Source of the DNA: a phage
Assembly (NCBI GenBank): GCA_038450185.1
Contig: GCA_038450185.1_4765.1
Reading direction: 5' to 3' (one strand)
Length of the DNA: 64,000 bases
Below the pieces are notes generated by a model. The model was not told where the DNA came from. It did not search any database and saw only the letters and a list, made by a program, of their open reading frames with translations. The position numbers were made by a program, and so were the translations under genes. Positions within the stretch are counted from its first letter, which is position 1; each line of letters begins with the position of its first letter. Positions 1 to 54,632 of the stretch are shown here, one piece after another.

Positions 1-83
1 GTTCCATCTTCCAGTAATGCAGTACCGATTTCGTTAATGCGGTCATAAGTTACGTCGGTAATGATGATTTCGATGTTAGCCAT
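1..83 (-). CDS. hypothetical protein, N-terminal part only (gene runs past window start)
   Basis: ATG at 83 on minus strand with AGGAG SD; begins MANIEIIITDV; lies downstream of promoter cassette 120-148. Confidence 0.4.
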   Translation of the reverse strand, partial: MANIEIIITDVTYDRINEIGTALLEDG

Positions 84-119
84 TTGATACTCCTTAGTAG
101 TTCGTTTCGGTATGTGTGC

Positions 120-148
120 ATTATAGGGGATCACCGATCCCCTGTCAA
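120..148 (-). promoter_or_regulatory. sigma70-type early promoter cassette (TTGACA-17-TATAAT), palindromic spacer
   Basis: Minus strand reads TTGACA GGGGATCGGTGATCCCC TATAAT; coordinates span the -10 to -35 hexamers. Confidence 0.6.
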
Positions 149-155
149 CAACTTT

Positions 156-674
156 TTAGTTATTTTTTAATTGTTCATCTTGCAATAATGCAATCACATG
201 CTGGCGATGTTCTTCCGATTGAGGTACACCGAAAAAGTTTGTTTTGTAGAAATACTCTAATCGGTCTTCTCGTGTGCTCTCTTCCATCATGATCGCGGGT
301 AGTCCGAGATTTCGGAAACGTCGCTTTTCTGCTGGCGTAAAATCACTGTAATACAACATAGAATCATCATTACAAGCAATGCTAAACTCATCCTTCATAA
401 AGGAGAATATTGCGTTTAAACGCTGTTTACCGTCCACGATTTCGATCTCATAGCGAGAGCCATCATCAATCTTAGCCATTGCGATAGCACCAACCGGAAA
501 ATCATTAATCAGGTTTTCGATAAACATACGTTTGTTTTCGGTGTCCCATACTAAAGGACGCTGATAATCTGGGTTCATGTTGATATAGCCATCTTCTAAC
601 CATGCTTCGTAAACAGAGATGACAAAGTTTTTAGTATTGGTATAGTAACGGCGTTTAGGCGTTAAACGGTTCAT
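156..674 (-). CDS. DUF262 / ParB-like (GmrS N-terminal type) domain protein
   Basis: ORF track 156..710 trimmed to ATG at 674 with AGGAG SD; motifs DYQRPLVWD, FIENLINDFPVGAI, IVDGKQRL. Confidence 0.5.
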   Translation of the reverse strand: MNRLTPKRRYYTNTKNFVISVYEAWLEDGYINMNPDYQRPLVWDTENKRMFIENLINDFPVGAIAMAKIDDGSRYEIEIVDGKQRLNAIFSFMKDEFSIACNDDSMLYYSDFTPAEKRRFRNLGLPAIMMEESTREDRLEYFYKTNFFGVPQSEEHRQHVIALLQDEQLKNN

Positions 675-675
675 G

Positions 676-1008
676 TTATAGTCTCCTGAATGGATCATCA
701 CGTAAATCAATATCTTTTAAGAACTCATCCCATGAATGGCGGATATTGTTCTTAATTCTCCAGATGAGCGCAGGGATTGAACGCTCTCCCATCTGGAAGT
801 ATGGATCATATGATCCGTATGCCCAATATGCTACTACAATTCCACAATCAGAGCAATAGTATTCTATTTCACTTGCTGGCGACCAAAGTCCATCAATATG
901 ATCGGTGATCTTGCTTTCGATGTTATGGCTATGGCAATCAGGGCAACGGATGCAATGACCTTGTTTGTCGTAATTTGACGTTAGAGAATACTTAAACAAT
1001 CTCATCAT
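676..1008 (-). CDS. small zinc-finger protein (CxxCPDCH ... CSDC)
   Basis: ORF track; ATG at 1008 with AAGGA SD; stop overlaps start of downstream DUF262 gene. Confidence 0.5.
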   Translation of the reverse strand: MMRLFKYSLTSNYDKQGHCIRCPDCHSHNIESKITDHIDGLWSPASEIEYYCSDCGIVVAYWAYGSYDPYFQMGERSIPALIWRIKNNIRHSWDEFLKDIDLRDDPFRRL

Positions 1009-1721
1009 AGATCCTTATTGGCTTCAAATACTGCCTTTGCGAATCCTCGCGGGGTAAGCGACCTGATAGTCTTTGTTCTGGTTCCTTTCCCGCCTAGCTT
1101 AGAATGCTGTTTACTGTACCCTTTATTAATCTGCAAAGGTTTCTTTTCTGGCATTATAAAGCCTTGTCCGGTCCATAAGCAAGTCTTTTTTGGGTACATA
1201 TCACGGGCGGCAATATACTCAGGAAACGTAGGATGCTTATCATCTTCCGGCAAATAACCGCCATATTCCCACGGATGGAACATATAATCAGGCTTACGCC
1301 ACATGCTAGAGATAACGCTTACAGGATTCTCTATCATGTAGGGAACTCCTAGCCATTCACCCAAATAAGCGGTTATTTTAGCTGCCCGTACATCATGAAC
1401 TTGAATCAATGGTCCTTGTCCTCGTTTCTTTCGTTCAAAGTGCGCAGCGCCACTAACAGCTAAATTGGTGCACGGTGGGAATGCAAAGATAATATCCGGT
1501 TTCCCCCATTCAAGGTCCATTGCTCTTTCCAGCCAATTCAAATCAATCCATGTGTTTACATAAGTAATGTTTGGATGTTCAAATCGGGTATTATACTTTT
1601 TGTATGTGCCGTGATCGCCATCGTCAGCATTAAAGCAGATCACCTTATGACCTTCTTTAGCCCATTCTAGCCCCATTATCCCCGATCCGTCAAAGTTGCA
1701 GAATATTAATTTTTGTTTCAT
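1005..1721 (-). CDS. putative compact DNA (cytosine-5)-methyltransferase-like protein
   Basis: ORF track; motif I-like FCNFDGSG, motif IV-like FAFPPCTNLAVSG (catalytic Cys), motif VI-like MIENPV; only about 238 aa, so target-recognition region is short. Confidence 0.4.
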   Translation of the reverse strand: MKQKLIFCNFDGSGIMGLEWAKEGHKVICFNADDGDHGTYKKYNTRFEHPNITYVNTWIDLNWLERAMDLEWGKPDIIFAFPPCTNLAVSGAAHFERKKRGQGPLIQVHDVRAAKITAYLGEWLGVPYMIENPVSVISSMWRKPDYMFHPWEYGGYLPEDDKHPTFPEYIAARDMYPKKTCLWTGQGFIMPEKKPLQINKGYSKQHSKLGGKGTRTKTIRSLTPRGFAKAVFEANKDL

Positions 1722-1963
1722 ATACGCCCCTTTAATCCAACACAGATTTTAGAAGGTTCTTTGCCGTGCCACATTAAGTAAAGTCCGTTAATGCGGCCTT
1801 GTTTTGTATATGATTCTTTTCTGATCTTCTTATAGTGTCGTGTTTCCTCAACTGATTGTTTAGAATACCAATCATAAAGGAAGAGGCACAAAGGCCAACC
1901 ATTAGCGGCCTTAATGCAGTTATTAAGAAATTCCTTATTGCGTTTAATTAATTTTCTTTTCAC
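1718..1963 (-). CDS. hypothetical basic protein
   Basis: ORF track; apparent GTG start at 1963 overlapping upstream stop (GTGA). Confidence 0.3.
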   Translation of the reverse strand: MKRKLIKRNKEFLNNCIKAANGWPLCLFLYDWYSKQSVEETRHYKKIRKESYTKQGRINGLYLMWHGKEPSKICVGLKGRI

Positions 1964-2211
1964 GCTGCCCCCATTGGTTTGATAGTAACAGAATCTAAAA
2001 GACCTTTGTTAGCCAGTTCGCGGCAAGTTTTCAGATCCGCAACTTCCCAGCCAGCCGCAATCAGGTTGTCAATGAGGCTGTTAGCAACTTCTTCGCTCAT
2101 GAAAGAGCACTGTTTGCCGATGGTGTAGCGTACACGCTGTAATTTCAGTTTACGGAAGCCTTTAACGTTCAGGTCTTTAGCGATTTTCTTTGCGGTTTCG
2201 ATGTTAGCCAT
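1960..2211 (-). CDS. hypothetical early protein
   Basis: ORF track; ATG at 2211, GGAGAATCAAA-type RBS, promoter cassette directly upstream. Confidence 0.5.
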   Translation of the reverse strand: MANIETAKKIAKDLNVKGFRKLKLQRVRYTIGKQCSFMSEEVANSLIDNLIAAGWEVADLKTCRELANKGLLDSVTIKPMGAA

Positions 2212-2251
2212 TGTTTGATTCTCCTAAGTGGTATCTCGTCTTGATGGTTGT

Positions 2252-2280
2252 ATTGTAGGGGAGTTATCCTCCCCTGTCAA
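2252..2280 (-). promoter_or_regulatory. early promoter cassette (TTGACA-17-TACAAT), palindromic spacer
   Basis: Spacer GGGGAGGATAACTCCCC on minus strand. Confidence 0.55.
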
Positions 2281-2294
2281 CACTTTTTATAAAA

Positions 2295-2462
2295 TTATTT
2301 GTTAATTTCTGGTGCGTTGCTCGGATAGTAACCTTCTTTAACACCCAGATATTTTGCAACCATCCCTACAATCTTCTGTGCTACTACAATGTCAAATTTC
2401 AGATAATCTTCGCCGTGGGTTTCAATGATATATGCTTCACATGCTGCTTTAGTCTCGAACAT
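2295..2462 (-). CDS. hypothetical small protein (paralogue of 6038..6205)
   Basis: ORF track 2295..2528 trimmed to ATG at 2462 (MFETKAACEAY); near-identical to 6038..6205. Confidence 0.5.
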   Translation of the reverse strand: MFETKAACEAYIIETHGEDYLKFDIVVAQKIVGMVAKYLGVKEGYYPSNAPEINK

Positions 2463-2495
2463 TTTGATTCTCCTATTTCGTTTCGTTATGTGTGT

Positions 2496-2525
2496 ATTAT
2501 AGGGGATCGGTGATCCCCTTGTCAA
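2496..2525 (-). promoter_or_regulatory. early promoter cassette (TTGACA-18-TATAAT), palindromic spacer
   Basis: Spacer contains GGGGATCACCGATCCCC. Confidence 0.55.
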
Positions 2526-2540
2526 CAACTTTTTTTAAAA

Positions 2541-2822
2541 TTATTCGTGATTAGTTTCGATGTTGTGCATTTTGCACCAGTTCAGCCAGTCGCCCAGATC
2601 TTGATAGTTGATGCTTTTATCTGCTGCCATCGTTTTTGTCTTGATACCCATATGTGCGTTATGAGTAAGCATTTTTACAGTGAACTCGATTTTATCGCCT
2701 TTAGCTTTAACATCAACCAGTTTGGTCCACTGGCTACCAGCGCCGCGAATGTTCATACCAACGATGTTTCCGATGTATGCTTCTTTGTTTTTCAGGATTT
2801 CGGTTGCTTTGATGAATTTCAT
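2541..2822 (-). CDS. hypothetical early protein
   Basis: ORF track; ATG at 2822 with GGAG RBS; promoter cassette upstream. Confidence 0.5.
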   Translation of the reverse strand: MKFIKATEILKNKEAYIGNIVGMNIRGAGSQWTKLVDVKAKGDKIEFTVKMLTHNAHMGIKTKTMAADKSINYQDLGDWLNWCKMHNIETNHE

Positions 2823-2855
2823 TTTTGGTTCTCCAGTTCGTTTCGGTATGGGTGT

Positions 2856-2884
2856 ATTATGCTATGTTCTTACTTTGGTGTCAA
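2856..2884 (-). promoter_or_regulatory. early promoter cassette (TTGACA-17-CATAAT)
   Basis: tgtcaa and attatg hexamers on plus strand at correct spacing upstream of gene starting 2822. Confidence 0.5.
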
Positions 2885-2892
2885 CAACTTTT

Positions 2893-3162
2893 TTAGATAT
2901 TTTCAGAAATAAATTTTAAAACTTGACGTAAATGTTTCTCATCTTTGATAGTCGCCGGAAGTTCTTCTTTTACTTCCTGTGCAAGATAGATATTTCCGTT
3001 CCAAGTGAAAGATCCGTCTTCGTTTACGCGATAGCTGAACATCCACTCGCAATCATTTTCGATTTCATATACACACAGAAGGGTGTAATCGTTAAAGCTA
3101 GTGATTTCAAGGTCGAAGCCGTGACGTTTTGCAAAGTTGGTAGTGGTTTTAGTCAGAGCCAT
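2893..3162 (-). CDS. hypothetical early protein
   Basis: ORF track; ATG at 3162; promoter cassette upstream. Confidence 0.5.
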   Translation of the reverse strand: MALTKTTTNFAKRHGFDLEITSFNDYTLLCVYEIENDCEWMFSYRVNEDGSFTWNGNIYLAQEVKEELPATIKDEKHLRQVLKFISENI

Positions 3163-3202
3163 TGTTTGATTCTCCTAAGTGGTATCTCGTTTCGATGTGT
3201 GT

Positions 3203-3231
3203 ATTATGCTATAGGCCGGATCTGGTGTCAA
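3203..3231 (-). promoter_or_regulatory. early promoter cassette (TTGACA-17-CATAAT)
   Basis: Same gtattatgctat...gtgtcaa module as 2856 and 3691. Confidence 0.5.
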
Positions 3232-3240
3232 TGCCTTTTT

Positions 3241-3266
3241 TAAAAAAGCCGACACTAAGGTCGGCA
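3241..3266 (-). terminator. intrinsic terminator
   Basis: GCCGAC-actaag-GTCGGC hairpin flanked by A-run (T-run on minus strand). Confidence 0.55.
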
Positions 3267-3270
3267 CATT

Positions 3271-3525
3271 TTAAAAATTCTTGCTATATATGCAAGCCTC
3301 ATAATCTAGAGGATGACCGCCAATCCTACCCGGCTTAATATTCCAACCGCATCGATATTTGCTGACCATGCTAACAGTTTCGGTTCTTAGAGCATTTCTT
3401 TGCAAATCATACCCCCTAAATTCTTGTCTATAAGGACAGTCCGCTTTGCAAGTTGGCGGTTCTACGTCATTTAGAGGGTCGGAAGCAGTTGGCTTTATTA
3501 TCAATTCTTTGTTTGCAATAATCAT
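3271..3525 (-). CDS. hypothetical protein (start uncertain)
   Basis: ORF track 3271..3588 starts on TTG; first in-frame ATG at 3525 overlaps 3467..3658 in another frame; a short 32-aa product from ATG 3369 is also possible. Confidence 0.25.
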   Translation of the reverse strand: MIIANKELIIKPTASDPLNDVEPPTCKADCPYRQEFRGYDLQRNALRTETVSMVSKYRCGWNIKPGRIGGHPLDYEACIYSKNF

Positions 3526-3658
3526 AAGCACATCCCATTGAAGACAATTTAACATCTTCGCAATAAGTGTTGAATCCGTCAAATACAATCACTTCGTATT
3601 TGACTCCATCAGCGATAGCTTTTACTTTATACCATCCATGCTTGTATAAAATCTTCAT
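3467..3658 (-). CDS. hypothetical small Cys-rich protein
   Basis: ORF track; ATG at 3658; promoter cassette upstream. Confidence 0.5.
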   Translation of the reverse strand: MKILYKHGWYKVKAIADGVKYEVIVFDGFNTYCEDVKLSSMGCAYDYCKQRIDNKANCFRPSK

Positions 3659-3690
3659 CTTTATTTCCTCAATCTCGTTTCGATGGGTGT

Positions 3691-3719
3691 ATTATGCTAT
3701 AGTCGTGATCTGGTGTCAA
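3691..3719 (-). promoter_or_regulatory. early promoter cassette (TTGACA-17-CATAAT)
   Basis: Hexamers at correct spacing upstream of gene starting 3658. Confidence 0.5.
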
Positions 3720-3743
3720 TGCCTTTTTTAAAATTTTATGCAA

Positions 3744-3768
3744 TAAAAAAGCCGACACTAAGGTCGGC
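3744..3768 (-). terminator. intrinsic terminator (second copy of the 3241 element)
   Basis: Same GCCGACACTAAGGTCGGC hairpin preceded by AAAAAA. Confidence 0.55.
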
Positions 3769-3776
3769 TAATGAAA

Positions 3777-4082
3777 TCATTTAGACAAATAATCATTCTG
3801 TGCAATCCGGTCAGCATGTTCCGGCGTTACGTCAATTGCAATCACTTTAACGCGCGCTTTCTTGACTGAATTTTCTCGTAGCCAGTGCGTGTGACCGTGC
3901 ACATTTTTATACTTTGATGCTTTTTCGAAAGTACGGATCGGACCTGGGTAATCAGCGTAAAGGATCTCTAGGTCTTCTGTGATGTAAAAATATACATCAT
4001 AATTACTGTTCTCTAGTTTAAGCAGAGACTTTCGGAACATTGGGAGATTTTCGCGGGTAAATTCAAAGATATTATCTTTCAT
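3777..4082 (-). CDS. hypothetical protein, HxHxHW family paralogue
   Basis: ORF track 3777..4229 trimmed to ATG 4082 with GAGGA SD; motifs YITEDLEILY, HGHTHW, VIAIDV. Confidence 0.5.
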   Translation of the reverse strand: MKDNIFEFTRENLPMFRKSLLKLENSNYDVYFYITEDLEILYADYPGPIRTFEKASKYKNVHGHTHWLRENSVKKARVKVIAIDVTPEHADRIAQNDYLSK

Positions 4083-4131
4083 AGTATTATCCTCAATAGT
4101 TGGATGAAAAGGGGGCTTAACGCCCCGTATA

Positions 4132-4419
4132 TTAAAACAGTCCTTCCTGTACACCGTAGTAGAGTTCATCGCTGATAATTTCATTAATGCGACGGTGTGC
4201 ATATTCCTGATTTGCGAAGTTGTCAGCAAGTTCTACTTTAGTTTCGCCGTCATGAGTCCATTTAGTGATAACTTTACCATCTGCAAATTTGAAGTTGAAC
4301 TCTTTAGCTACTGCATCGCGTACCAGACGTGCAAACTTATTGTTGCGGATTGCATTGTCGGTTTCGTGTGCAGCGTGAGCGAATTTGTTAACTTTCAGGG
4401 TGATAGTAATGTATGCCAT
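4132..4419 (-). CDS. hypothetical early protein
   Basis: ORF track; ATG at 4419; promoter cassette upstream. Confidence 0.5.
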   Translation of the reverse strand: MAYITITLKVNKFAHAAHETDNAIRNNKFARLVRDAVAKEFNFKFADGKVITKWTHDGETKVELADNFANQEYAHRRINEIISDELYYGVQEGLF

Positions 4420-4465
4420 AATTTGATTCTCCTAGTTAGAAAGTGTATCTCGTTTCGATGGGTGT

Positions 4466-4494
4466 ATTATGCTATACACCCAACCTCATGTCAA
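4466..4494 (-). promoter_or_regulatory. early promoter cassette (TTGACA-17-CATAAT)
   Basis: Hexamers at correct spacing upstream of gene starting 4419. Confidence 0.5.
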
Positions 4495-4500
4495 CACTTT

Positions 4501-4779
4501 TTATAAAATAATTTTTTGATATTTTTCTATGATGTTCGTGTAATTCACATCAACCGCTAGCACCGTTGCTTCGAATCCACCGTTTAGCCAATGGCTATGA
4601 TCGTGATCGTGAAAGAAACCTAGACCAGTACGAAGACCTTCTTTATATTCGGCGCGTACATTTAGATCATCATCGATAAACAGATAAAACCATGAATTTT
4701 TACTAGGATTGATGATACAACCTTTCAGATTCGGGAGAATATCACGACTAAGAATAAACTTATCACCTACTTTGAACAT
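4501..4779 (-). CDS. hypothetical protein, HxHxHW family paralogue
   Basis: ORF track 4501..4869 trimmed to ATG 4779 with GTGAGGA SD; motifs FIDDDLNV, HDHDHSHW, VLAVDV. Confidence 0.5.
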   Translation of the reverse strand: MFKVGDKFILSRDILPNLKGCIINPSKNSWFYLFIDDDLNVRAEYKEGLRTGLGFFHDHDHSHWLNGGFEATVLAVDVNYTNIIEKYQKIIL

Positions 4780-4793
4780 AATATTTTCCTCAC

Positions 4794-5102
4794 TTATAAA
4801 GTTTGACCGTTGTTTTTCGCGTAATGCTGAATGCGTGCTTGATCTGCTTCCGATGGTGATAGATTCCATGCAACCACTACAACTTCTGAAGCATCGTCAT
4901 CCGTTTCTGATACCCAATGATTGTGATTCATACAGTTATTTGCTATCGAGTGAGCAAATGATTTCATCACTGGAGACGTATAATCATAGTAACGGATTTT
5001 CAGATTTTCATCAACATACAAGTAGATCGTATACGGCTTATATTCAGTAACCAATAACAGACAGTTACGCAATTCTGGGAAAATCTTTTTAGTTAATTTC
5101 AT
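4794..5102 (-). CDS. hypothetical protein, HxHxHW family paralogue
   Basis: ORF track; motifs YVDENLKIRYYD, NHNHW, VVVAW. Confidence 0.5.
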   Translation of the reverse strand: MKLTKKIFPELRNCLLLVTEYKPYTIYLYVDENLKIRYYDYTSPVMKSFAHSIANNCMNHNHWVSETDDDASEVVVVAWNLSPSEADQARIQHYAKNNGQTL

Positions 5103-5304
5103 ATTCTAGTTCTCCGTAATACACGGTAATCCATTTTTCTTCATACTTTGTATCTTTCCAGCACACAATCCCGTTTACTGTGCAATCTTTGGAATTGACG
5201 AATGATTCATATTGTTCTGCATCTTCCATCATTTCATGAGCGGTCTTTTCATCGAATATATCGCAGATCGCTTTATATGCTCGATAATCTTTAAATTTGC
5301 TCAT
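5089..5304 (-). CDS. hypothetical small protein (tandem paralogue of 5307..5516)
   Basis: ORF track 5089..5316 trimmed to ATG 5304; shares MSKFKDY..AY N-terminus with neighbour. Confidence 0.4.
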   Translation of the reverse strand: MSKFKDYRAYKAICDIFDEKTAHEMMEDAEQYESFVNSKDCTVNGIVCWKDTKYEEKWITVYYGELEYEIN

Positions 5305-5306
5305 AA

Positions 5307-5516
5307 TTAACACCACTCAAGAGTTTTTGAAAACACATCTATCCATTGTTGAGTATATGCGGTTTCTTTCCATGACACAATACCAGTCGAATAATGGTTT
5401 TTGTTTCCAGAAAAGGACGGGCATTTTGATGCATCTTCCATCATCTTTTCGGCGAACTCTGGTGCGTATACTCGCAGGATCTGTTGATATGCTTTATAGT
5501 CTTTAAATTTGCTCAT
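5307..5516 (-). CDS. hypothetical small protein (tandem paralogue of 5089..5304)
   Basis: ORF track; ATG at 5516. Confidence 0.45.
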   Translation of the reverse strand: MSKFKDYKAYQQILRVYAPEFAEKMMEDASKCPSFSGNKNHYSTGIVSWKETAYTQQWIDVFSKTLEWC

Positions 5517-5781
5517 AATCGTTAACTACCTTATCAGCTTCTTTTATTGTTTTTACATCAACTGCGATAATCCGTAAAGGTTCGTCGAAGGTCCACCAAT
5601 GATCGTGAATATCAGCTTGTGATTTATCACCAAAGGAATCACGAATATCATTTTTACATTTATAGCTAATGTGACCGTCATAGTCAACATAAAGGTAATT
5701 ATCGAAAATCGGCGTTTTTAAGATCATACCGAAAAATCTTTCTTTGTGTGTCTTATCCAGTGTTGCAGTAATTCGCATCAT
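5503..5781 (-). CDS. hypothetical protein, HxHxHW family paralogue
   Basis: ORF track; ATG 5781 with AGAGGA SD; motifs YVDYDGHISY, HDHWW, IIAVDV. Confidence 0.5.
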   Translation of the reverse strand: MMRITATLDKTHKERFFGMILKTPIFDNYLYVDYDGHISYKCKNDIRDSFGDKSQADIHDHWWTFDEPLRIIAVDVKTIKEADKVVNDYEQI

Positions 5782-5793
5782 AATATATTCCTC

Positions 5794-5973
5794 TTAGAAA
5801 GGGATGGTCATTTCTTGAGCTTGTACATTCTCGTTAGGATTAAACTTCATCCAACCGATATTGTCTACCAGCATATGTACATTTTTATCATATCCTACGT
5901 GAGTAGTCAACACTAAATGTGCTTTACCTTCAACGATGATTTCCATGTACTTCTGAACTTCGATAGCTTTCAT
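5794..5973 (-). CDS. hypothetical 59-aa protein (below ORF-track size cutoff)
   Basis: Hand translation: ATG at 5973 after GGAGAATCAAA RBS, MKAIEVQKYMEIIVEG..., stop at 5794-5796; promoter cassette upstream. Confidence 0.4.
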   Translation of the reverse strand: MKAIEVQKYMEIIVEGKAHLVLTTHVGYDKNVHMLVDNIGWMKFNPNENVQAQEMTIPF

Positions 5974-6005
5974 TTTGATTCTCCGTTTGTTGTCTTGATG
6001 GGAGT

Positions 6006-6034
6006 ATATTACTACTCCCTTTAATCATTGTCAA
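6006..6034 (-). promoter_or_regulatory. early promoter cassette (TTGACA-17-TAATAT) with palindrome across -10
   Basis: GGGAGTATATTACTACTCCC palindrome overlaps the -10 box. Confidence 0.45.
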
Positions 6035-6037
6035 CTA

Positions 6038-6205
6038 TTATTTGTTAATTTCCGGTGCGTTGCTCGGATAGTAACCTTCTTTAACACCCAGATATTTCGC
6101 AACCATTCCGGTGATCTTCTGTGCTACTACGATATCGAATTTCAGGTAGTCTTCACCGTGGTTTGCTACAATGTATGCTTCGCATTCTGCTTTAGTCTGG
6201 AACAT
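6038..6205 (-). CDS. hypothetical small protein (paralogue of 2295..2462)
   Basis: ORF track 6038..6241 trimmed to ATG 6205 (MFQTKAECEAY). Confidence 0.5.
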   Translation of the reverse strand: MFQTKAECEAYIVANHGEDYLKFDIVVAQKITGMVAKYLGVKEGYYPSNAPEINK

Positions 6206-6239
6206 TTTTGATTCTCCTATATCTCGTTGGTATGTGTGC

Positions 6240-6268
6240 ATTATAGGGGATCACCGATCCCCTGTCAA
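6240..6268 (-). promoter_or_regulatory. early promoter cassette (TTGACA-17-TATAAT), palindromic spacer
   Basis: About 45 bp identical to the cassette at 111-155. Confidence 0.6.
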
Positions 6269-6276
6269 CAACTTTT

Positions 6277-6579
6277 TTATTCTTCGTCTTTATCTTTATA
6301 TGCGTATTTCATAAATTTGTCTGCTACTTCATCGGCATGTTCCGATTCTACGTCGGATTCGAGAACAATAGCAAGATCGGTTTCGTCGTTTCCGTCATAC
6401 CAATGATTATGAGTATCGTTTTCTTCGATATAGAATGAGTCATTTGGAGTTGGACGACAATATACATCTAAATTCTCATCGATGTAAAAGATCCAATCTT
6501 CGTAAAGAATAACCGTATTAGCCAGATTTTTATTGCCTTCAACGAAAGGTTCAGCTACAAATAGCTTAGTTTGTTCCAT
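6277..6579 (-). CDS. hypothetical protein, HxHxHW family paralogue
   Basis: ORF track 6277..6636 trimmed to ATG 6579 with GAGGAAAA SD; motifs YIDENLDVY, THNHW, LAIVLESDV. Confidence 0.5.
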   Translation of the reverse strand: MEQTKLFVAEPFVEGNKNLANTVILYEDWIFYIDENLDVYCRPTPNDSFYIEENDTHNHWYDGNDETDLAIVLESDVESEHADEVADKFMKYAYKDKDEE

Positions 6580-6595
6580 AATATTTTCCTCAAAA

Positions 6596-6787
6596 TTATA
6601 CAGCTTCGTAAACTTCCCAATGTTCAGCGCCAGCACGCTTAACGAAAAGGTTTTCTTTGATGTTATTCATAAACGTCTGGATGGATTTAATGCGGTTGGA
6701 AGGTTTCCAGTCTTCGTTAGCATTTCGGCGATACATTATAACATTACCAGATCGCTTATATTCAGCAACCATTTTAAGACCACACAT
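6596..6787 (-). CDS. hypothetical small protein
   Basis: ORF track; ATG at 6787 with GAGGA SD. Confidence 0.45.
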   Translation of the reverse strand: MCGLKMVAEYKRSGNVIMYRRNANEDWKPSNRIKSIQTFMNNIKENLFVKRAGAEHWEVYEAV

Positions 6788-6843
6788 AATATTATCCTCA
6801 ATTTGTGGGAGAGTATTACCCTCCAGATTATTGTTATACTACA

Positions 6844-7146
6844 TTACGCAAAATGGCGTGTCAATGCTTCTTTTGCTGTTCCGCTAAGATTCTCGATCTC
6901 TCCTGGCATAACATCAACCGCCAGAACTTCTACAACATCCTCTGATCCTAACCAGTGAGTATGACCTTTGTAGAACTTGATATCCCATTTATCGCTATCG
7001 CTAGCCCACCACACATCACCGTCGATAAAGTTGATGTAAAGCACACTACGACACATTGAATTAATTACTTTCAATACTGCGCCTTTCATATCTTCCACGG
7101 TATGGTCTTCCATTTTGAAGACCTCACCTACCTGAACTTTTGCCAT
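6844..7146 (-). CDS. hypothetical protein, HxHxHW family paralogue
   Basis: ORF track; motifs FIDGDVWW, KGHTHW, VLAVDV. Confidence 0.5.
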   Translation of the reverse strand: MAKVQVGEVFKMEDHTVEDMKGAVLKVINSMCRSVLYINFIDGDVWWASDSDKWDIKFYKGHTHWLGSEDVVEVLAVDVMPGEIENLSGTAKEALTRHFA

Positions 7147-7163
7147 TTAGTCACCTCTCTTTA

Positions 7164-7343
7164 TTACATAACAATCACGCCAGCCGTTGAAAGTTGATGT
7201 TTCAACTGAGCATTTTCTGCTACTGTCAAATCAATGATTTCTTGTGACGCTGCAATCATATAGCCATTGGTGATATTGTTTTTCATCAGTTCAATGGTTT
7301 CTTCGTTGTAGCGGATTTTAGCGATGATTTCGTTGAAGTTCAT
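7164..7343 (-). CDS. hypothetical small protein
   Basis: ORF track 7164..7445 trimmed to ATG 7343 (MNFNEIIAKI) with GGAGAATCAA RBS; promoter cassette upstream. Confidence 0.45.
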   Translation of the reverse strand: MNFNEIIAKIRYNEETIELMKNNITNGYMIAASQEIIDLTVAENAQLKHQLSTAGVIVM

Positions 7344-7377
7344 AATTGATTCTCCTAGTTCGTTTCGGTATGTGTGT

Positions 7378-7406
7378 AGTATAGGGGATCGGTGATCCCC
7401 TGTCAA
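7378..7406 (-). promoter_or_regulatory. early promoter cassette (TTGACA-17-TATACT), palindromic spacer
   Basis: Spacer GGGGATCACCGATCCCC on minus strand. Confidence 0.55.
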
Positions 7407-7419
7407 CAACTTTTTTGAA

Positions 7420-7896
7420 TTATTTTTCTTTATGCTCGCGCTCATACTTTTCGAAATAAAATTCTACTGGCTGGTCGTGGATTGACAGTAAGCCAAAGCG
7501 TTTAGCCGCTCGCAATCCCATATTGCGCTGAATGTACTTCTGGAAGTTCTCGCGTATACACTTACGCCAGTATTCTAAGCCCATACAGCTTTTATAAAGA
7601 TTGCATTGCACACATGCCGGATTCATGTTATCAAGTATATCATGCTCCGGTTTATGCATTCCTACAACCTTATACTTCCACGATCCATCATCATTACGGG
7701 CAATTCGTCCATTTTCATCATAGACTACCTTTGAGCGTCGCAATACTGGTTTGATGTGGTCTGCGTGCCAGCGATCCCCTAGTTCCTCGCCACAATAGGC
7801 ACAACGTCCACCATATTTCATTTTCAGGATCTGGCGTTGCTCTTTCTTTGACAATTTTTTAGGTTTAGGGGCTTTCGCCCCTTCATTATCACACAT
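7420..7896 (-). CDS. HNH endonuclease domain protein
   Basis: ORF track; CAYCGEEL...HADHIKP...CVQCNLYKS zinc-binding HNH signature; overlaps ligase gene by a few nt. Confidence 0.55.
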   Translation of the reverse strand: MCDNEGAKAPKPKKLSKKEQRQILKMKYGGRCAYCGEELGDRWHADHIKPVLRRSKVVYDENGRIARNDDGSWKYKVVGMHKPEHDILDNMNPACVQCNLYKSCMGLEYWRKCIRENFQKYIQRNMGLRAAKRFGLLSIHDQPVEFYFEKYEREHKEK

Positions 7897-9382
7897 CGAA
7901 TACCTCTTTTACTGTATTTGCAGTGGTCTTGTCGTAGCGAATACGTTTGATGATCGGGAGAAATAAAGAGAACTCCGGTTCATCTTCTTTACGTGATTTG
8001 CTGCGGATATACCCGTTGCATGTCATCTCAATGACTTTTCCAATCAGGTTATGACGGTCAGCCCATAACATTTCTCGGTCAAGTTCATTTCTACGATCGA
8101 ACGGAATCACACGTTCAATACCATCATCTTTTTCGGTTGTAGTGTCGGTCAATCCCGATCCGGTGTTGGTCATCATTCGTCCGCACGCACTACGGACAGT
8201 AAAACCGCCTACCTTATTAGGATCTTTACTATGCGGATATACATCAACAATTTCCGCGTCGAAGTCAATCACTTCTTTAAATTTAACCTGATCTTTACTG
8301 CGACGATCTTCAAATACACCATGCAGATTTTTAAGGATAATACCTTCTAATCCCATGTTTACATATCGATGATATACTTCGCGAGCTTCATCGATATTGT
8401 TAACTACAGTATTTTCGATTATCTGCACACGAGGATCGTTAAGTTCTTCAACAATCTGTTTTAGTTCTTCGAATCGATCTTTATATTGCTTCGTTGCTTT
8501 CTCGTTTCCGTAATACACATCACGGTTGATAACATCCCAGACAGTGTAAACAATACATTGGGCTTCTTCTTTTGGAATAGTTCCTTTCAGTGATTTGTTG
8601 AGGATACCATTTCCGGTCTGACGATCTGCAACAACGGATTCTTTTACTGCTTCCGCTACTGGCGTTAATGGCATTTCCTCTTCTTCAAATATCCATGACA
8701 GAGTACCATCATAAACGCTTTCAACGAAGTTCTGCGCTGGTGTTTGCGAAAGGGTAGGCATATATACCAATTCGCCATCTAGAACAATTCCACGGCCTCG
8801 TAGACGCTCTAAAACAGCAAACAAATCATCCAGCCCCTGATAGGTATTACCTGAACGGGTATATATTGCTAGTGTTTCCCCGTCAATATCAGCCATACCA
8901 CGAGCGCCATCACTTTTAAGTTGTGCATATGCCGGATATTTGATATTAGCAATAGCCTTATCAGAATATGACGATGCAAGGTGGCATGGTTGCTGTGGGA
9001 TCAGTTTCTTCCATACCTTGTTTGCAGTGGTAGCGGAACAACCGCATTCCAGATCACGATTCAGGACCATCATTGCAACTTTAGCATCATCTTCTGACAA
9101 GCAAGTCAGAGTATCGGTAACTAGTTGTAATGCAGCATTACCAGTTACTTGACGCGTGGCAAGTTTATTTTTAAAGACCTGTAATGCACCGGATAAAGAC
9201 AATACAGACGAATAACGCGATGGTTTATCGTATTTCTTTACGCCAAACGTAACCTGTTTGCAATATGCCAGATAAAAGCATTCTTTCAGCGTTTCATTGC
9301 TTGCAGATTCTTTCAGGATCTTTTCTTTCAGCGATGTTTTGTCTGTCGCTGCAAGCTGATTAATGATATTAAGAATTGACAT
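7889..9382 (-). CDS. 30: ATP-dependent DNA ligase (T4 gp30-like)
   Basis: ORF track 7889..9388, ATG at 9382 with GAGGTG SD; strong similarity to my recollection of T4 ligase (DLECG, AYAQLKSDGAR, GNGILNKSLKG, GLEGIILKN). Confidence 0.9.
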   Translation of the reverse strand: MSILNIINQLAATDKTSLKEKILKESASNETLKECFYLAYCKQVTFGVKKYDKPSRYSSVLSLSGALQVFKNKLATRQVTGNAALQLVTDTLTCLSEDDAKVAMMVLNRDLECGCSATTANKVWKKLIPQQPCHLASSYSDKAIANIKYPAYAQLKSDGARGMADIDGETLAIYTRSGNTYQGLDDLFAVLERLRGRGIVLDGELVYMPTLSQTPAQNFVESVYDGTLSWIFEEEEMPLTPVAEAVKESVVADRQTGNGILNKSLKGTIPKEEAQCIVYTVWDVINRDVYYGNEKATKQYKDRFEELKQIVEELNDPRVQIIENTVVNNIDEAREVYHRYVNMGLEGIILKNLHGVFEDRRSKDQVKFKEVIDFDAEIVDVYPHSKDPNKVGGFTVRSACGRMMTNTGSGLTDTTTEKDDGIERVIPFDRRNELDREMLWADRHNLIGKVIEMTCNGYIRSKSRKEDEPEFSLFLPIIKRIRYDKTTANTVKEVFDV

Positions 9383-11284: not shown

Positions 11285-11488
11285 TTAACCGTATACGCGA
11301 AAGTATTCTACTGATCCGTCGCTATATTGTTTTACATTGAATGTATTCACGCCATGATCATTGCTCATAATGACATACACACTGCGACGCTCATCACTAA
11401 ACGGGTTAACTGGTGCTGGTTCAATTTCAACATTAAAACCACGTTTAGCAAGTGCTTCGCCTAATTTCTTGAGTTTATCGGTAAACAT
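11285..11488 (-). CDS. hypothetical protein
   Basis: ORF track; ATG 11488. Confidence 0.4.
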   Translation of the reverse strand: MFTDKLKKLGEALAKRGFNVEIEPAPVNPFSDERRSVYVIMSNDHGVNTFNVKQYSDGSVEYFRVYG

Positions 11489-12366
11489 TAAAAGTCTCCG
11501 TAGTTAACCTGAAAACATTCTACACCAATTGAGCGGTACATGTCAACCACTTGATCACGGTCATCTACTGCCAAAACAACATGATATCGCGGTGCAATTT
11601 CAGAGAAGAAAATCTCTTTCTTTACTTCATGATCAGGACGACGATCATTAGTTTCACGTTGAAAGTGATCACTAGGTTCAATACCCTGTTCACGCAACCA
11701 TTGCAGAGTATCTTCTTCGCAAACATCCTCACGCCCTGAGCATGTAATGATACGATAGCCATTATCACGATACAGTTTAAGCATTTCGACCACTTGCTGA
11801 CGTGGTTTATCTTCTTTGACCTTTGTCCAGTCAAACGGATGACGACCGCCCTTATCCGCTAATGTTCCATCAATATCAAAGATCACTGCCTTTGGCAGCA
11901 TAGTATTCGGTTTGTATACTTCTTGACCCATATATTCCTGCATCAGATAAAATTGGTTGCGCAAATGAGAAAGTGGAATTGCTTTCTCGCCGCGATAGAA
12001 ATTACGTTTCTTTAGTGTCTCAAATGATTCATTGAACACTTGTTCAGTATACACCGCGTTAAATTCTTTTGCAAGTTCTTTGTAGAATACACGATGTTTT
12101 TCTTTCAGGTTAGTATCAGAGATAATGATACTTAATCCGCGTGATAGAGTCTCACGAGCAATCATTCTCTGAATAGACTCTACCAGCTTTTCCTTTTCCT
12201 TAGTATATTTGTATTTCAAAAGTGAGTCAACACCAAACAACATAAGACGAAGGTCATCACGATTCACATTACGATAATTACTAAACCTTTTACATGTTTC
12301 CATAGCCCATGTAGTTTTACCGGACCCAGAACAACCAACGGTTAAAATCACTTCACATTTCGGCAT
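11488..12366 (-). CDS. pseT: polynucleotide 5'-kinase / 3'-phosphatase
   Basis: ORF track 11488..12387, ATG 12366 with AGGAG SD; P-loop GCSGSGKTTWA plus HAD motif FDIDGTLAD. Confidence 0.85.
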   Translation of the reverse strand: MPKCEVILTVGCSGSGKTTWAMETCKRFSNYRNVNRDDLRLMLFGVDSLLKYKYTKEKEKLVESIQRMIARETLSRGLSIIISDTNLKEKHRVFYKELAKEFNAVYTEQVFNESFETLKKRNFYRGEKAIPLSHLRNQFYLMQEYMGQEVYKPNTMLPKAVIFDIDGTLADKGGRHPFDWTKVKEDKPRQQVVEMLKLYRDNGYRIITCSGREDVCEEDTLQWLREQGIEPSDHFQRETNDRRPDHEVKKEIFFSEIAPRYHVVLAVDDRDQVVDMYRSIGVECFQVNYGDF

Positions 12367-16095: not shown

Positions 16096-16572
16096 TTAAT
16101 CATGACCGTGATTTGCAATATCCGCTCGTGTCGTGTCTTTGTGATTTCCTACGTCAAAGACACGATAGCCGTTTTCTCTGAGAACTTTAATCACTTCTGG
16201 GTTATCTTCGAATACTCCCACCACTTCATCTTTATCAAATGATTTAATTACCTCTAATTTGATGTGATAGTCTTTACGGGAATCGGTACGTCCTCTCATA
16301 AAGATTTTATCAAAACACACCCCGTTAGAAATTAACCAATCAATTGTTTCCATGTAAGCATGTGAACTTCGTCCTGTGAGGATGTAAATCAAATGCCCGT
16401 TGTCGGAAAGAGCATTGATAACACGGATTACATCGTAAATGGGGGAATCTCCCCCACATGCCTTGTTATATTCGATCCATGACTCGACTTTATCAAGATT
16501 TTCGGTTGGCATCTTTGCTAGTCGATGCGTTGGATCTGTGATCGTAAAATCTAAATCGACAAAATATATCAT
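16096..16572 (-). CDS. HAD-superfamily phosphatase-like protein
   Basis: ORF track; DxD motif DLDFTIT, ILTGRS, FEDNPEV; function inferred from motifs only. Confidence 0.45.
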   Translation of the reverse strand: MIYFVDLDFTITDPTHRLAKMPTENLDKVESWIEYNKACGGDSPIYDVIRVINALSDNGHLIYILTGRSSHAYMETIDWLISNGVCFDKIFMRGRTDSRKDYHIKLEVIKSFDKDEVVGVFEDNPEVIKVLRENGYRVFDVGNHKDTTRADIANHGHD

Positions 16573-42235: not shown

Positions 42236-42264
42236 ATTATAGGGGATCGCAGATCCCCTGTCAA
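42236..42264 (-). promoter_or_regulatory. early promoter cassette (TTGACA-17-TATAAT), palindromic spacer
   Basis: Spacer GGGGATCTGCGATCCCC. Confidence 0.55.
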
Positions 42265-54286: not shown

Positions 54287-54463
54287 TCAAAACCCTCGCT
54301 TAGTGGAATGTTCTGGCATTTTATTGATACATTCAGCTTGGTCGTCACGAGATTTTTTTGACGAATTAAGAGCTACAGCCAAAAAATCCTGTAACTGTTC
54401 GTTTGTCATTTTTGGCTTACACCGCGTATCTAAACCCTTCGTTCTTCTAGCTTCATTAGCCAT
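54287..54463 (-). CDS. hypothetical 58-aa protein sharing C-terminal tail with 54465..54632
   Basis: Hand translation MANEARRTKGLDTRCKPKMTNEQ ... AECINKMPEHSTKRGF. Confidence 0.35.
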   Translation of the reverse strand: MANEARRTKGLDTRCKPKMTNEQLQDFLAVALNSSKKSRDDQAECINKMPEHSTKRGF

Positions 54464-54464
54464 A

Positions 54465-54632
54465 TCAAAACCCTCGCTTAGTGAAATGCTCGATCATTTT
54501 ATTGATACATGCAGCTTCACTATCGCCGGACACGTTCCAGCCGTATAGACCCCATCTAAAGCACATGGTAACAGTTCCATTGTGACGGCTTACCGTCACA
54601 TCATTAAATTCTGGGATACTTCGCATAATCAT
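54465..54632 (-). CDS. hypothetical 55-aa protein sharing C-terminal tail with 54287..54463
   Basis: Hand translation MIMRSIPEFNDVTVSRHNG ... AACINKMIEHFTKRGF; GAGGA SD. Confidence 0.35.
   Translation of the reverse strand: MIMRSIPEFNDVTVSRHNGTVTMCFRWGLYGWNVSGDSEAACINKMIEHFTKRGF

Follow-up and report, generated by a model that had tools for sequence, protein, structure and literature searches.

How do two nearly identical genes of only 55 codons, each behind its own promoter, come to lie a few kilobases apart in a phage genome, and how long ago did this happen? The question is raised by a 64-kb stretch of phage DNA (GenBank assembly GCA_038450185.1; "the window" below means this whole stretch of 64,000 nucleotides), in which an open reading frame (ORF) for a 55-residue protein occurs twice, as copy A and copy B, behind similar upstream cassettes. 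An earlier note had read this arrangement, together with a nearby tandem pair of paralogues, as a sign of recent cassette-mediated recombination. The second part of that reading agrees with the recombinant junctions and chimeric cassettes described below. Its date does not agree with sites that are shared by 52 of 59 genomes or with a synonymous divergence of about 1.5 in the 5′ half of the gene. The best explanation of the whole, with a probability of roughly 0.88, is that A and B are old, shared modules in a recombining region of an RB49-like phage, hyperplastic region 3 (HPR3), whose modules are bounded by promoter-early stem-loops (PeSLs).

Both copies were found where they had been reported, on the minus strand. 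Their proteins differ at six of 55 residues (89% identity, BLASTP E 7e-35) and their coding sequences at 22 of 165 nt. By the repeat search the duplicated blocks form a direct repeat of 172 nt with 87% identity, 3743 nt apart, close to the 3.7 kb first given. The longest perfect identity, 44 nt, lies inside the coding sequence. An all-against-all BLASTP comparison of the 245 ORFs of the window returned A and B as its sole close pair of paralogues. The two copies are alike from the AT-rich tract ahead of the −35 hexamer as far as the stop codon, where the similarity ends; a different intergenic cassette follows each copy. Both start at an ATG 7–8 nt past a GGAG Shine–Dalgarno (SD) sequence. Longer ORFs with TTG or ATG starts were rejected as real genes because these starts lie upstream of the −10 box.

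The age of the pair can be judged from its relatives. The flanking 5.3 kb matched 59 phage records at 92–95% nucleotide identity, all of them Krischvirus (RB49-like T4-type coliphages), and the window can be assigned to a phage of this kind. Its gene order is syntenic with the annotated RB49 genome from ORF187 to ORF213, from a DNA methyltransferase through an HNH endonuclease and the gp30 ligase. The region in question is HPR3 of RB49, a run of small, non-essential early genes; all genes in positions 1–9000 of the window are on the minus strand. With the 168-nt gene as the query, a census of the 59 records gave two copies in 52, one copy in 7 and zero copies in none, and in the 52 both copies occupy orthologous sites. 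A tblastn sample, made up of the window and 12 loci of relatives, of which 11 belong to Krischvirus genomes and one to a metagenomic contig, showed that A and B each form an orthologous lineage of their own throughout the genus. The copy B protein is 100% identical in eight of the nine B-carrying genomes compared (96% in phi1), and the copy A protein is 98–100% identical in nine genomes, including RB49, GoldenSnicker, SAP, 011D4, G2248 and phi1. Of the six residue differences seen in the window, three to five hold in all genomes compared, the number varying with the set of genomes counted. Nucleotide differences number 1–7 within A and 1–10 within B (1–5 without the mosaic copy of Brandy), against 16–28 between A and B. 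Reading frames are intact wherever a copy is present (13 of 13 sequences).

The Nei–Gojobori method gave 0.055 nonsynonymous (dN) and 0.67 synonymous (dS) substitutions per site between A and B, a dN/dS of about 0.08, and both copies are under purifying selection. The divergence is unevenly spread. Codons 1–33 carry 20 differences in 99 nt (dS about 1.5) and codons 34–55 carry two in 66 nt (dS 0.16; Fisher's exact test, p = 0.001). This is not the picture of a recent segmental duplication: A and B form orthologous lineages across genomes, and their synonymous divergence is high. From these lineages, the dS and the census, it follows that the duplication pre-dates the sampled Krischvirus radiation. 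The comparison with related genomes, named in the earlier note as a check, found both copies in 52 of 59 genomes and natural recombinants in several.

The sequences upstream of the two genes can be identified with the PeSLs of RB49-like coliphages. These were named by Arbiol et al. (2010) and described in RB49 and phi1, chiefly in HPR3; in their description, a PeSL combines an AT-rich tract, in which the upstream gene has its stop codon, with a consensus sigma-70 promoter, a Gn-loop-Cn hairpin that sits between the hexamers or overlaps them, and an SD sequence with the ATG (PMC2839356). Most of the small early genes of the region stand behind a PeSL. Each of these parts was found in both cassettes. 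The AT-rich tract that holds the upstream stop codon is TAATTTTAAAAAAAGTTG in A and TAAAAAAGTTG in B. The promoters lie close to TTGACA-N17-TATAAT, with a spacer of 18 nt in A and 17 nt in B, and both match the consensus at 12 of 12 positions. The spacer is filled by GGGGATC-N3-GATCCCC, an 8-bp stem with a minimum free energy (MFE) of −13 to −14 kcal/mol and a z-score of −2.0 to −2.8. The SD sequence and the start of the downstream ORFan follow (GGAGAATCAAAATG and GGAGAATCAAAAATG). The location is also that of PeSLs, in a hyperplastic region, at sites of gene presence and absence and with chimeric cassettes at the junctions. The sequence ahead of A reads TAA-TTTTAAAAAAAGT-TGTTGACA-A-GGGGATCACCGATCCCC-TATAAT-ACACACATAACGAAACGAAATA-GGAG-AATCAAA-ATG. 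The B cassette has the same layout with the loop inverted, and from −35 to ATG it is identical to PeSL206/205 of RB49.

The similarity of the two upstream cassettes is as real as was first reported, with a near-identical AT-rich tract, −35, GGGGATC-loop-GATCCCC hairpin, −10, leader and SD. What it does not indicate is a cassette particular to the duplicated gene. The GGGGATC-N3-GATCCCC type of PeSL occurs at five sites in the window (hairpins, in plus-strand numbering, at 126–142, 2502–2518, 6246–6262, 7384–7400 and 42242–42258). At the first of them the hairpin and 49 nt are identical to the copy B cassette and precede an unrelated gene. The A cassette is closest to PeSL 212/209, ahead of ORF209. 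Near-identical promoters are thus a trait of a dispersed PeSL family and are not evidence that promoter and gene were recently copied together.

Exchange has also taken place between the copies themselves. Copy A carries B-type bases at coding nt 114, 117 and 120 in the window and in SAP, and in the window also at nt 141; four other A orthologues read TAC CTC GGA in the patch at nt 114–120. Brandy lacks copy A, as does JK32, and the copy B of Brandy has six consecutive A-type bases at nt 51–75 with B-type bases on either side. These tracts are short gene-conversion patches that join A and B and differ between genomes.

In two genomes the pair has been reduced to one copy. The gene order in Cognac and FL04 is ORF206, one copy, ORF190, so that ORF193–ORF204 and one copy, about 3.7 kb, are missing, and the surviving coding sequence is A-type in both. 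Cognac has a B-type leader up to the SD sequence, which places its crossover between there and codon 3. FL04 has an A-type hairpin and leader, and its crossover lies in the AT-rich/−35 part. The two junctions stem from independent events. Both are the deletion expected from recombination between the A and B repeats, which supports cassette-mediated recombination. Other junctions in the region are of the same kind. The junction left by the loss of copy A in Brandy is a chimeric PeSL, with the AT-rich tract, −35, hairpin and −10 of PeSL 193/191 followed by the leader and SD of PeSL 191/190. ORF195/196 are absent from 011D4, G2248 and phi1; at the junction 011D4 and G2248 carry the chimera that would be expected of the cassettes at 3659–3776 and 3163–3270, the latter giving the 3′ half. 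These two cassettes are 94% identical over 62 nt and flank ORF195/196 as a dispensable module. RB49 has an additional ORF192 between two PeSLs, an arrangement already published (PMC2839356), where the other genomes have a single PeSL. MIZ4 is without ORF187–191. Mobility by a transposon or a homing endonuclease was considered for the duplication and rejected: the sole nearby nuclease, an HNH gene at 7420–7896, flanks neither copy, and every junction examined falls in a PeSL.

A mechanism can be proposed by analogy with RB49 and phi1. The promoter of each PeSL would fire immediately after infection via the host RNA polymerase, and the hairpin would attenuate read-through from upstream. As published, the cloned PeSL206/205 is a strong promoter (about 13,000 Miller units) and the hairpin of PeSL211/210 terminates as well as rrnB T1; circular excision products, the mini-circles, were detected by inverse PCR in RB49 for ORF191–194 and ORF192–193, and general recombination of the T4 type requires just short homology (PMC2839356). 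Some 50–100 nt of PeSL sequence recur every few hundred bases in direct orientation, so that the phage's own homologous recombination system could recombine PeSLs with each other. Such an exchange is expected to excise or insert whole modules of a PeSL and its ORF and to leave one chimeric PeSL at the junction; the deletions found in other genomes are the reciprocal products of such excisions. The duplicated block extends from the AT-rich/−35 part of one PeSL to the stop codon ahead of the next, and this is exactly the unit that such an exchange would move. The original duplication may have arisen when one such unit, possibly as a mini-circle, was inserted into another PeSL, presumably by the general T4-type machinery. 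The A/B pair itself acts as a direct repeat spaced by 3.7 kb and has collapsed to one copy in some natural isolates.

Several points weigh against this reading. The z-scores of the GGGGATC-type hairpins are modest (−2.0 to −3.7). Transcription starts, termination at the hairpin and mini-circles are carried over from RB49 and phi1 (PMC2839356). The event that founded the duplication is not observable, and its trace would look no different if a homologous cassette had been captured independently from another phage. Constraint rather than conversion could partly explain why the 3′ halves diverge so little, yet orthologues vary there at synonymous sites. Finally, no homology supports any function for the 55-residue protein.

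Independent capture is also the alternative that survives best, although it is considered unlikely. A and B would then be xenologues that entered an ancestral Krischvirus from different donor phages. The saturated synonymous divergence of the 5′ half would be accounted for, lambdoid prophages of another enterobacterium hold homologues behind PeSL-like cassettes, and PeSL mini-circles have been proposed as vehicles of horizontal transfer (PMC2839356). The family is tiny, however, and the 89% identity of A and B contrasts with the 57–60% (P0006) and about 50% (P0007) of the homologues outside the genus. The two possibilities are weakly discriminated, since the same recombination mechanism would operate in either case.

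A very improbable explanation is the one closest to the earlier note, in which the block of cassette and gene was copied in this genome or its immediate ancestor. The 87% nucleotide and 89% amino acid identity, the near-identical promoters and a 3′ part that differs at just two of 66 nt are what such an event would leave. Against it stand the occupation of both orthologous sites in 52 of 59 genomes, the clustering of A and of B across genomes with three to five of the six amino acid differences fixed, and the dS of the 5′ half, while the likeness of the 3′ halves is explained by conversion patches that differ from genome to genome.

It is harder still to believe that selection for a sigma-70 promoter and a terminator hairpin produced the similar cassettes by convergence, with no recombination. 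The hexamers and an AT-rich, UP-like tract are functionally constrained, and a general promoter pattern was not more frequent than in shuffled sequences (32 found, 27.4 expected). Constraint of this kind does not account for a perfect identity of 49 nt, loop and leader included, ahead of unrelated genes, for loop variants that move between sites and between orthologous positions, or for chimeric junctions whose halves exactly match both parental cassettes. The narrower pattern GTTGAC-N16-19-TANAATA was found four times against 0.08 expected. The best nine sigma-70 matches in positions 1–9000 (11–12 of 12) are all on the minus strand and intergenic. An assembly artefact from a collapsed or mis-joined repeat, which the earlier note had raised as a possible source of the duplication, can be dismissed: apart from the presence of repeats nothing favors it, the copies differ at 22 nt and six residues and have different flanks, and the same two positions are occupied in 52 independently sequenced and assembled genomes, including the Sanger-era RB49 and phi1.

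The old, PeSL-bounded modules thus remain the preferred explanation. The most variable part of the cassette is the hairpin loop. Small inversions of hairpin loops between inverted repeats are known from chloroplast non-coding DNA. The window contains both GGGGATC-GGT-GATCCCC and its exact reverse complement, GGGGATC-ACC-GATCCCC. At the orthologous 206/205 site the window, RB49, GoldenSnicker and Brandy have the GGT loop and SAP and MIZ4 the ACC loop; TGT, GGGA and TGC were seen as further loops. The hairpin loop appears to flip or to be exchanged. As in chloroplast small inversions, the loop is found both ways between stems that are perfect palindromes, in a single genome and also at a single orthologous site in different genomes; unlike them, the hairpin here lies inside the spacer of a phage promoter. 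Upstream of copy A, where six other phages carry a different loop (GGGGATCGGGAGATCCCC), the cassette of the window has been overwritten by another PeSL variant. The passages of the PeSL papers that were covered (PMC2839356, PMC4122927) hold no mention of loop inversion, by a term search that was not aimed at it. An enrichment of Dam sites was tried as the reason for the GGGGATC stems and rejected (359 GATC observed, 341 expected under a Markov model). No known RNA family was detected in positions 1–9000 at gathering thresholds.

The features of the region are collected in Table 1. The cassettes that bound the two modules downstream differ from those that drive them. The hairpin of PeSL 191/190, behind copy A, is the more stable (MFE −19.4 kcal/mol, z −5.1) compared with −13.9 kcal/mol and z −2.8 for PeSL 193/191. 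In the PeSL-like cassette behind copy B the hairpin GGGAGTA...TACTCCC overlaps the −10 (MFE −12.2 kcal/mol, z −4.3). A separate observation is a 79-nt repeat of 77% identity between 2176–2254 and 3127–3205 (…GAGATACCACTTAGGAGAATCAAACAATGGCT…), which covers the leaders and first codons of ORF190 and ORF194. By this repeat, PeSL homology reaches past the SD sequence into the starts of otherwise unrelated genes.

Table 1. Positions in the window of the duplicated gene, the tandem pair and the promoter cassettes of the region
Feature	Position	Strand	RB49 counterpart, family	Details
PeSL 187/186	84..155	minus		ahead of an unrelated gene that it drives (MANIE..., truncated where the window begins)
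PeSL 191/190	2212..2294	minus		downstream boundary of copy A module; TTGACA 2280-2275; hairpin GGGGAGGATAACTCCCC; TACAAT 2257-2252
Copy A, 55-aa early gene	2295..2462	minus	ORF191, phrog_8009	
PeSL 193/191	2463..2540	minus		drives copy A; 12/12 promoter match; AT-rich tract with ORF193 stop; -35 TTGACA 2525-2520; hairpin GGGGATCACCGATCCCC 2518-2502 (8-bp stem); -10 TATAAT 2501-2496; SD GGAG 2473-2470
Terminator + PeSL 195/194	3163..3270	minus		
Terminator + PeSL 197/196	3659..3776	minus		
Tandem paralogue 1	5089..5304	minus	ORF201 (position), phrog_8471	
Tandem paralogue 2	5307..5516	minus	ORF202, phrog_8471	start overlaps ORF203 end by 14 nt
PeSL-like cassette 205/204	5974..6037	minus		downstream boundary of copy B module; TTGACA-N17-TAATAT; 10/12 match
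Copy B, 55-aa early gene	6038..6205	minus	ORF205, phrog_8009	
PeSL 206/205	6206..6276	minus		drives copy B; -35 TTGACA 6268-6263; hairpin GGGGATCGGTGATCCCC 6262-6246; -10 TATAAT 6245-6240
PeSL 212/209	7347..7419	minus		drives ORF209; hairpin as in copy A cassette (loop in ACC orientation)

The window lacks ORF192, ORF210 and ORF211 of RB49 and retains ORF195/196; upstream of copy A, without ORF192, its topology is of the phi1 type. The absence of these three genes together with ORF195/196 and both 55-codon copies was found in none of the 12 compared loci. By this combination the phage is a new mosaic of known modules.

The tandem pair that had been noted beside the duplication is also real, with two adjacent genes on the same strand whose proteins are 46% identical (E 4e-21). 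It is not cassette-mediated, contrary to the earlier note. The stop codon of ORF202 lies 2 nt ahead of the ATG of ORF201, and no promoter or cassette lies between them, so an old tandem duplication is indicated. The first 42 nt of the two genes are 79% identical, the remainder 52%. The pair is present in all ten genomes that keep the segment and is limited to Krischvirus-like contigs. Two alleles of ORF201 with 62% protein identity occur in genomes that share more than 90% identity in the rest of this region (the window at 5089–5304 against locus L001 at 5265–5474, and L002, L003 and L007), and ORF203 of phi1 is only 57% identical. These variants resemble replacements of alleles within the operon, and no flanking PeSL is obvious. 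Two weak pairs were also returned by the all-against-all search of the window: a tandem one at 54287–54463 and 54465–54632 (57% identity over 28 residues) and a dispersed one at 11488–12366 and 16096–16572 (28% over 102 residues).

The 55-residue protein itself falls in a PHROG of unknown function; it has no Pfam family and no match among PDB sequences at E ≤ 1. Its AlphaFold model is a two-helix hairpin (residues 5–16 and 18–39) with an unstructured tail, GYYPSNAPEINK, at a mean predicted local distance difference test score of 66, and a Foldseek comparison of the model with the PDB gave nothing below E = 5. The tail is invariant in all full-length Krischvirus copies. The family is very small. 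A word-indexed search of 5.8 billion proteins gave five clusters, a full HMMER profile scan of 1.84 billion representatives added only two further small homologues, and there were none in GTDB species-representative genomes.

Outside the genus, the homologue P0006 (53 residues) is encoded by 18 bacterial contigs, which reach 600 kb in length, and stands at the end of a lambdoid-type prophage (GpA terminase, portal, Nu1-like protein) inserted in ycdX beside ghrA. Assemblies with this prophage are GCA_041540295.1, GCA_023349675.1 and GCA_031913005.1; the homologue cluster was found in the retrieved loci L013 (gene at 4001–4162) and L017–L024, as well as L008 and L016. The ghrA gene of the host is 72% identical to that of E. 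coli, the island was found by megablast in none of 5,426 complete E. coli genomes, and the host is an enterobacterium other than E. coli. The prophage genes run in the order 53-residue gene, ORF193-like (96 residues), ORF194-like (92 residues), the reverse of the phage order 194, 193, 191. The 53-residue and ORF194-like genes each stand behind a cassette of PeSL architecture, which shares its SD and its GGAGAATCAAA-ATG leader with the phage cassettes, and the ORF193-like gene begins 12 nt past the 53-residue gene with no promoter of its own. In the prophage cassette a terminator and an AT-rich tract are followed by GTTGACA-N17-TAATAT and CATCAAG, then by a GGGG-loop-CCCC hairpin, which lies past the −10, and by GGAGAATCAAAgATG. 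The other homologue, P0007, adjoins a NinG gene. As a side observation, the cluster fits the published idea of a horizontal movement of self-promoted modules, whatever its direction, and would link PeSL modules with classical morons.

As a tentative best guess, the 55-residue protein may be a non-toxic early accessory factor that binds a component of the host or of its defences through the conserved tail. The guess is based on the predicted immediate-early expression from a very strong promoter, on the retention of one copy or more by each of the 59 genomes and on prophage homologues behind constitutive-type promoters. A broader and quite unlikely reading is that PeSL cassettes, beyond serving as passive homology within one genus, are an exchange system across phage lifestyles in which the palindromic hairpins are sites of an active, structure-specific process, and that the protein acts against some widespread function of the host, the six surface residues at which A and B differ having made each copy a specialist. 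The first part is allowed by the prophage cluster of 191-, 193- and 194-like genes, by the reverse-complement loops at one site and by collapses of A and B that fall inside the PeSL despite the 44 nt of coding identity. The second rests on the retention of at least one copy in every genome of the census.

The shuffling of modules by PeSLs at HPR3 is already known and was described at this same locus. The PeSLs published for RB49 and phi1 (PMC2839356; Comeau et al. 2014, PMC4122927) share with those of the window the locus (HPR3, ORF190–212), the architecture and the association with presence or absence of ORFans. The crossovers, in the AT-rich tract or between the −10 and the ATG, fall in the zones mapped in mini-circles (PMC2839356). 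Term searches of these two papers found no mention of ORF191 and ORF205 as paralogues or of a duplication.

Other systems offer partial parallels. The insertion of morons in lambdoid phages (Hendrix et al. 2000; discussed in PMC2839356) is attributed to illegitimate recombination, with regulatory sequences that are not the vehicle of movement. The modules described here resemble them in that a single accessory gene with its own promoter and terminator stands between resident genes, and a lambdoid-type prophage ends in a self-promoted cluster of ORF191/205, ORF193 and ORF194 homologues; they differ in that the conserved cassette is itself the recombination site. Arbiol et al. drew an analogy with integron gene cassettes (PMC2839356). 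In both, small ORF modules that are served by a promoter leave and enter a repeated site in circular form, but here every module has its own promoter, and the general homologous machinery of the T4 type is presumed to carry out the recombination; neither an integrase nor attC was seen, the domain scan covering ten of the proteins of the region. In the internal-protein (IP) locus of T-even phages (Repoila et al. 1994, cited in PMC2839356) the repeats have early promoters of the T4 type and hairpins that are weak and AT-rich. Repeated promoter and hairpin elements flank highly variable small early genes there too; the two sets of repeats are analogues, not homologues.

What is added here is incremental and brings no new principle: the paralogy of ORF191 and ORF205, the tracts converted between them, natural isolates in which the repeat has collapsed, the flips of the loop and the homologues in prophages. 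The PeSL papers were written at a time of far fewer genomes. The comparative support is modest and comes from natural deletion products between specific PeSL pairs, from the tracts exchanged between A and B and from self-promoted modules in a temperate prophage. A published mechanism of phage genome plasticity was in this way re-discovered from raw sequence, at the locus of its first demonstration. For the annotation of these phages, ORF191 and ORF205 can be treated as one family, of which at least one copy is always kept, and the similarity of their promoters is no sign of a recent event.

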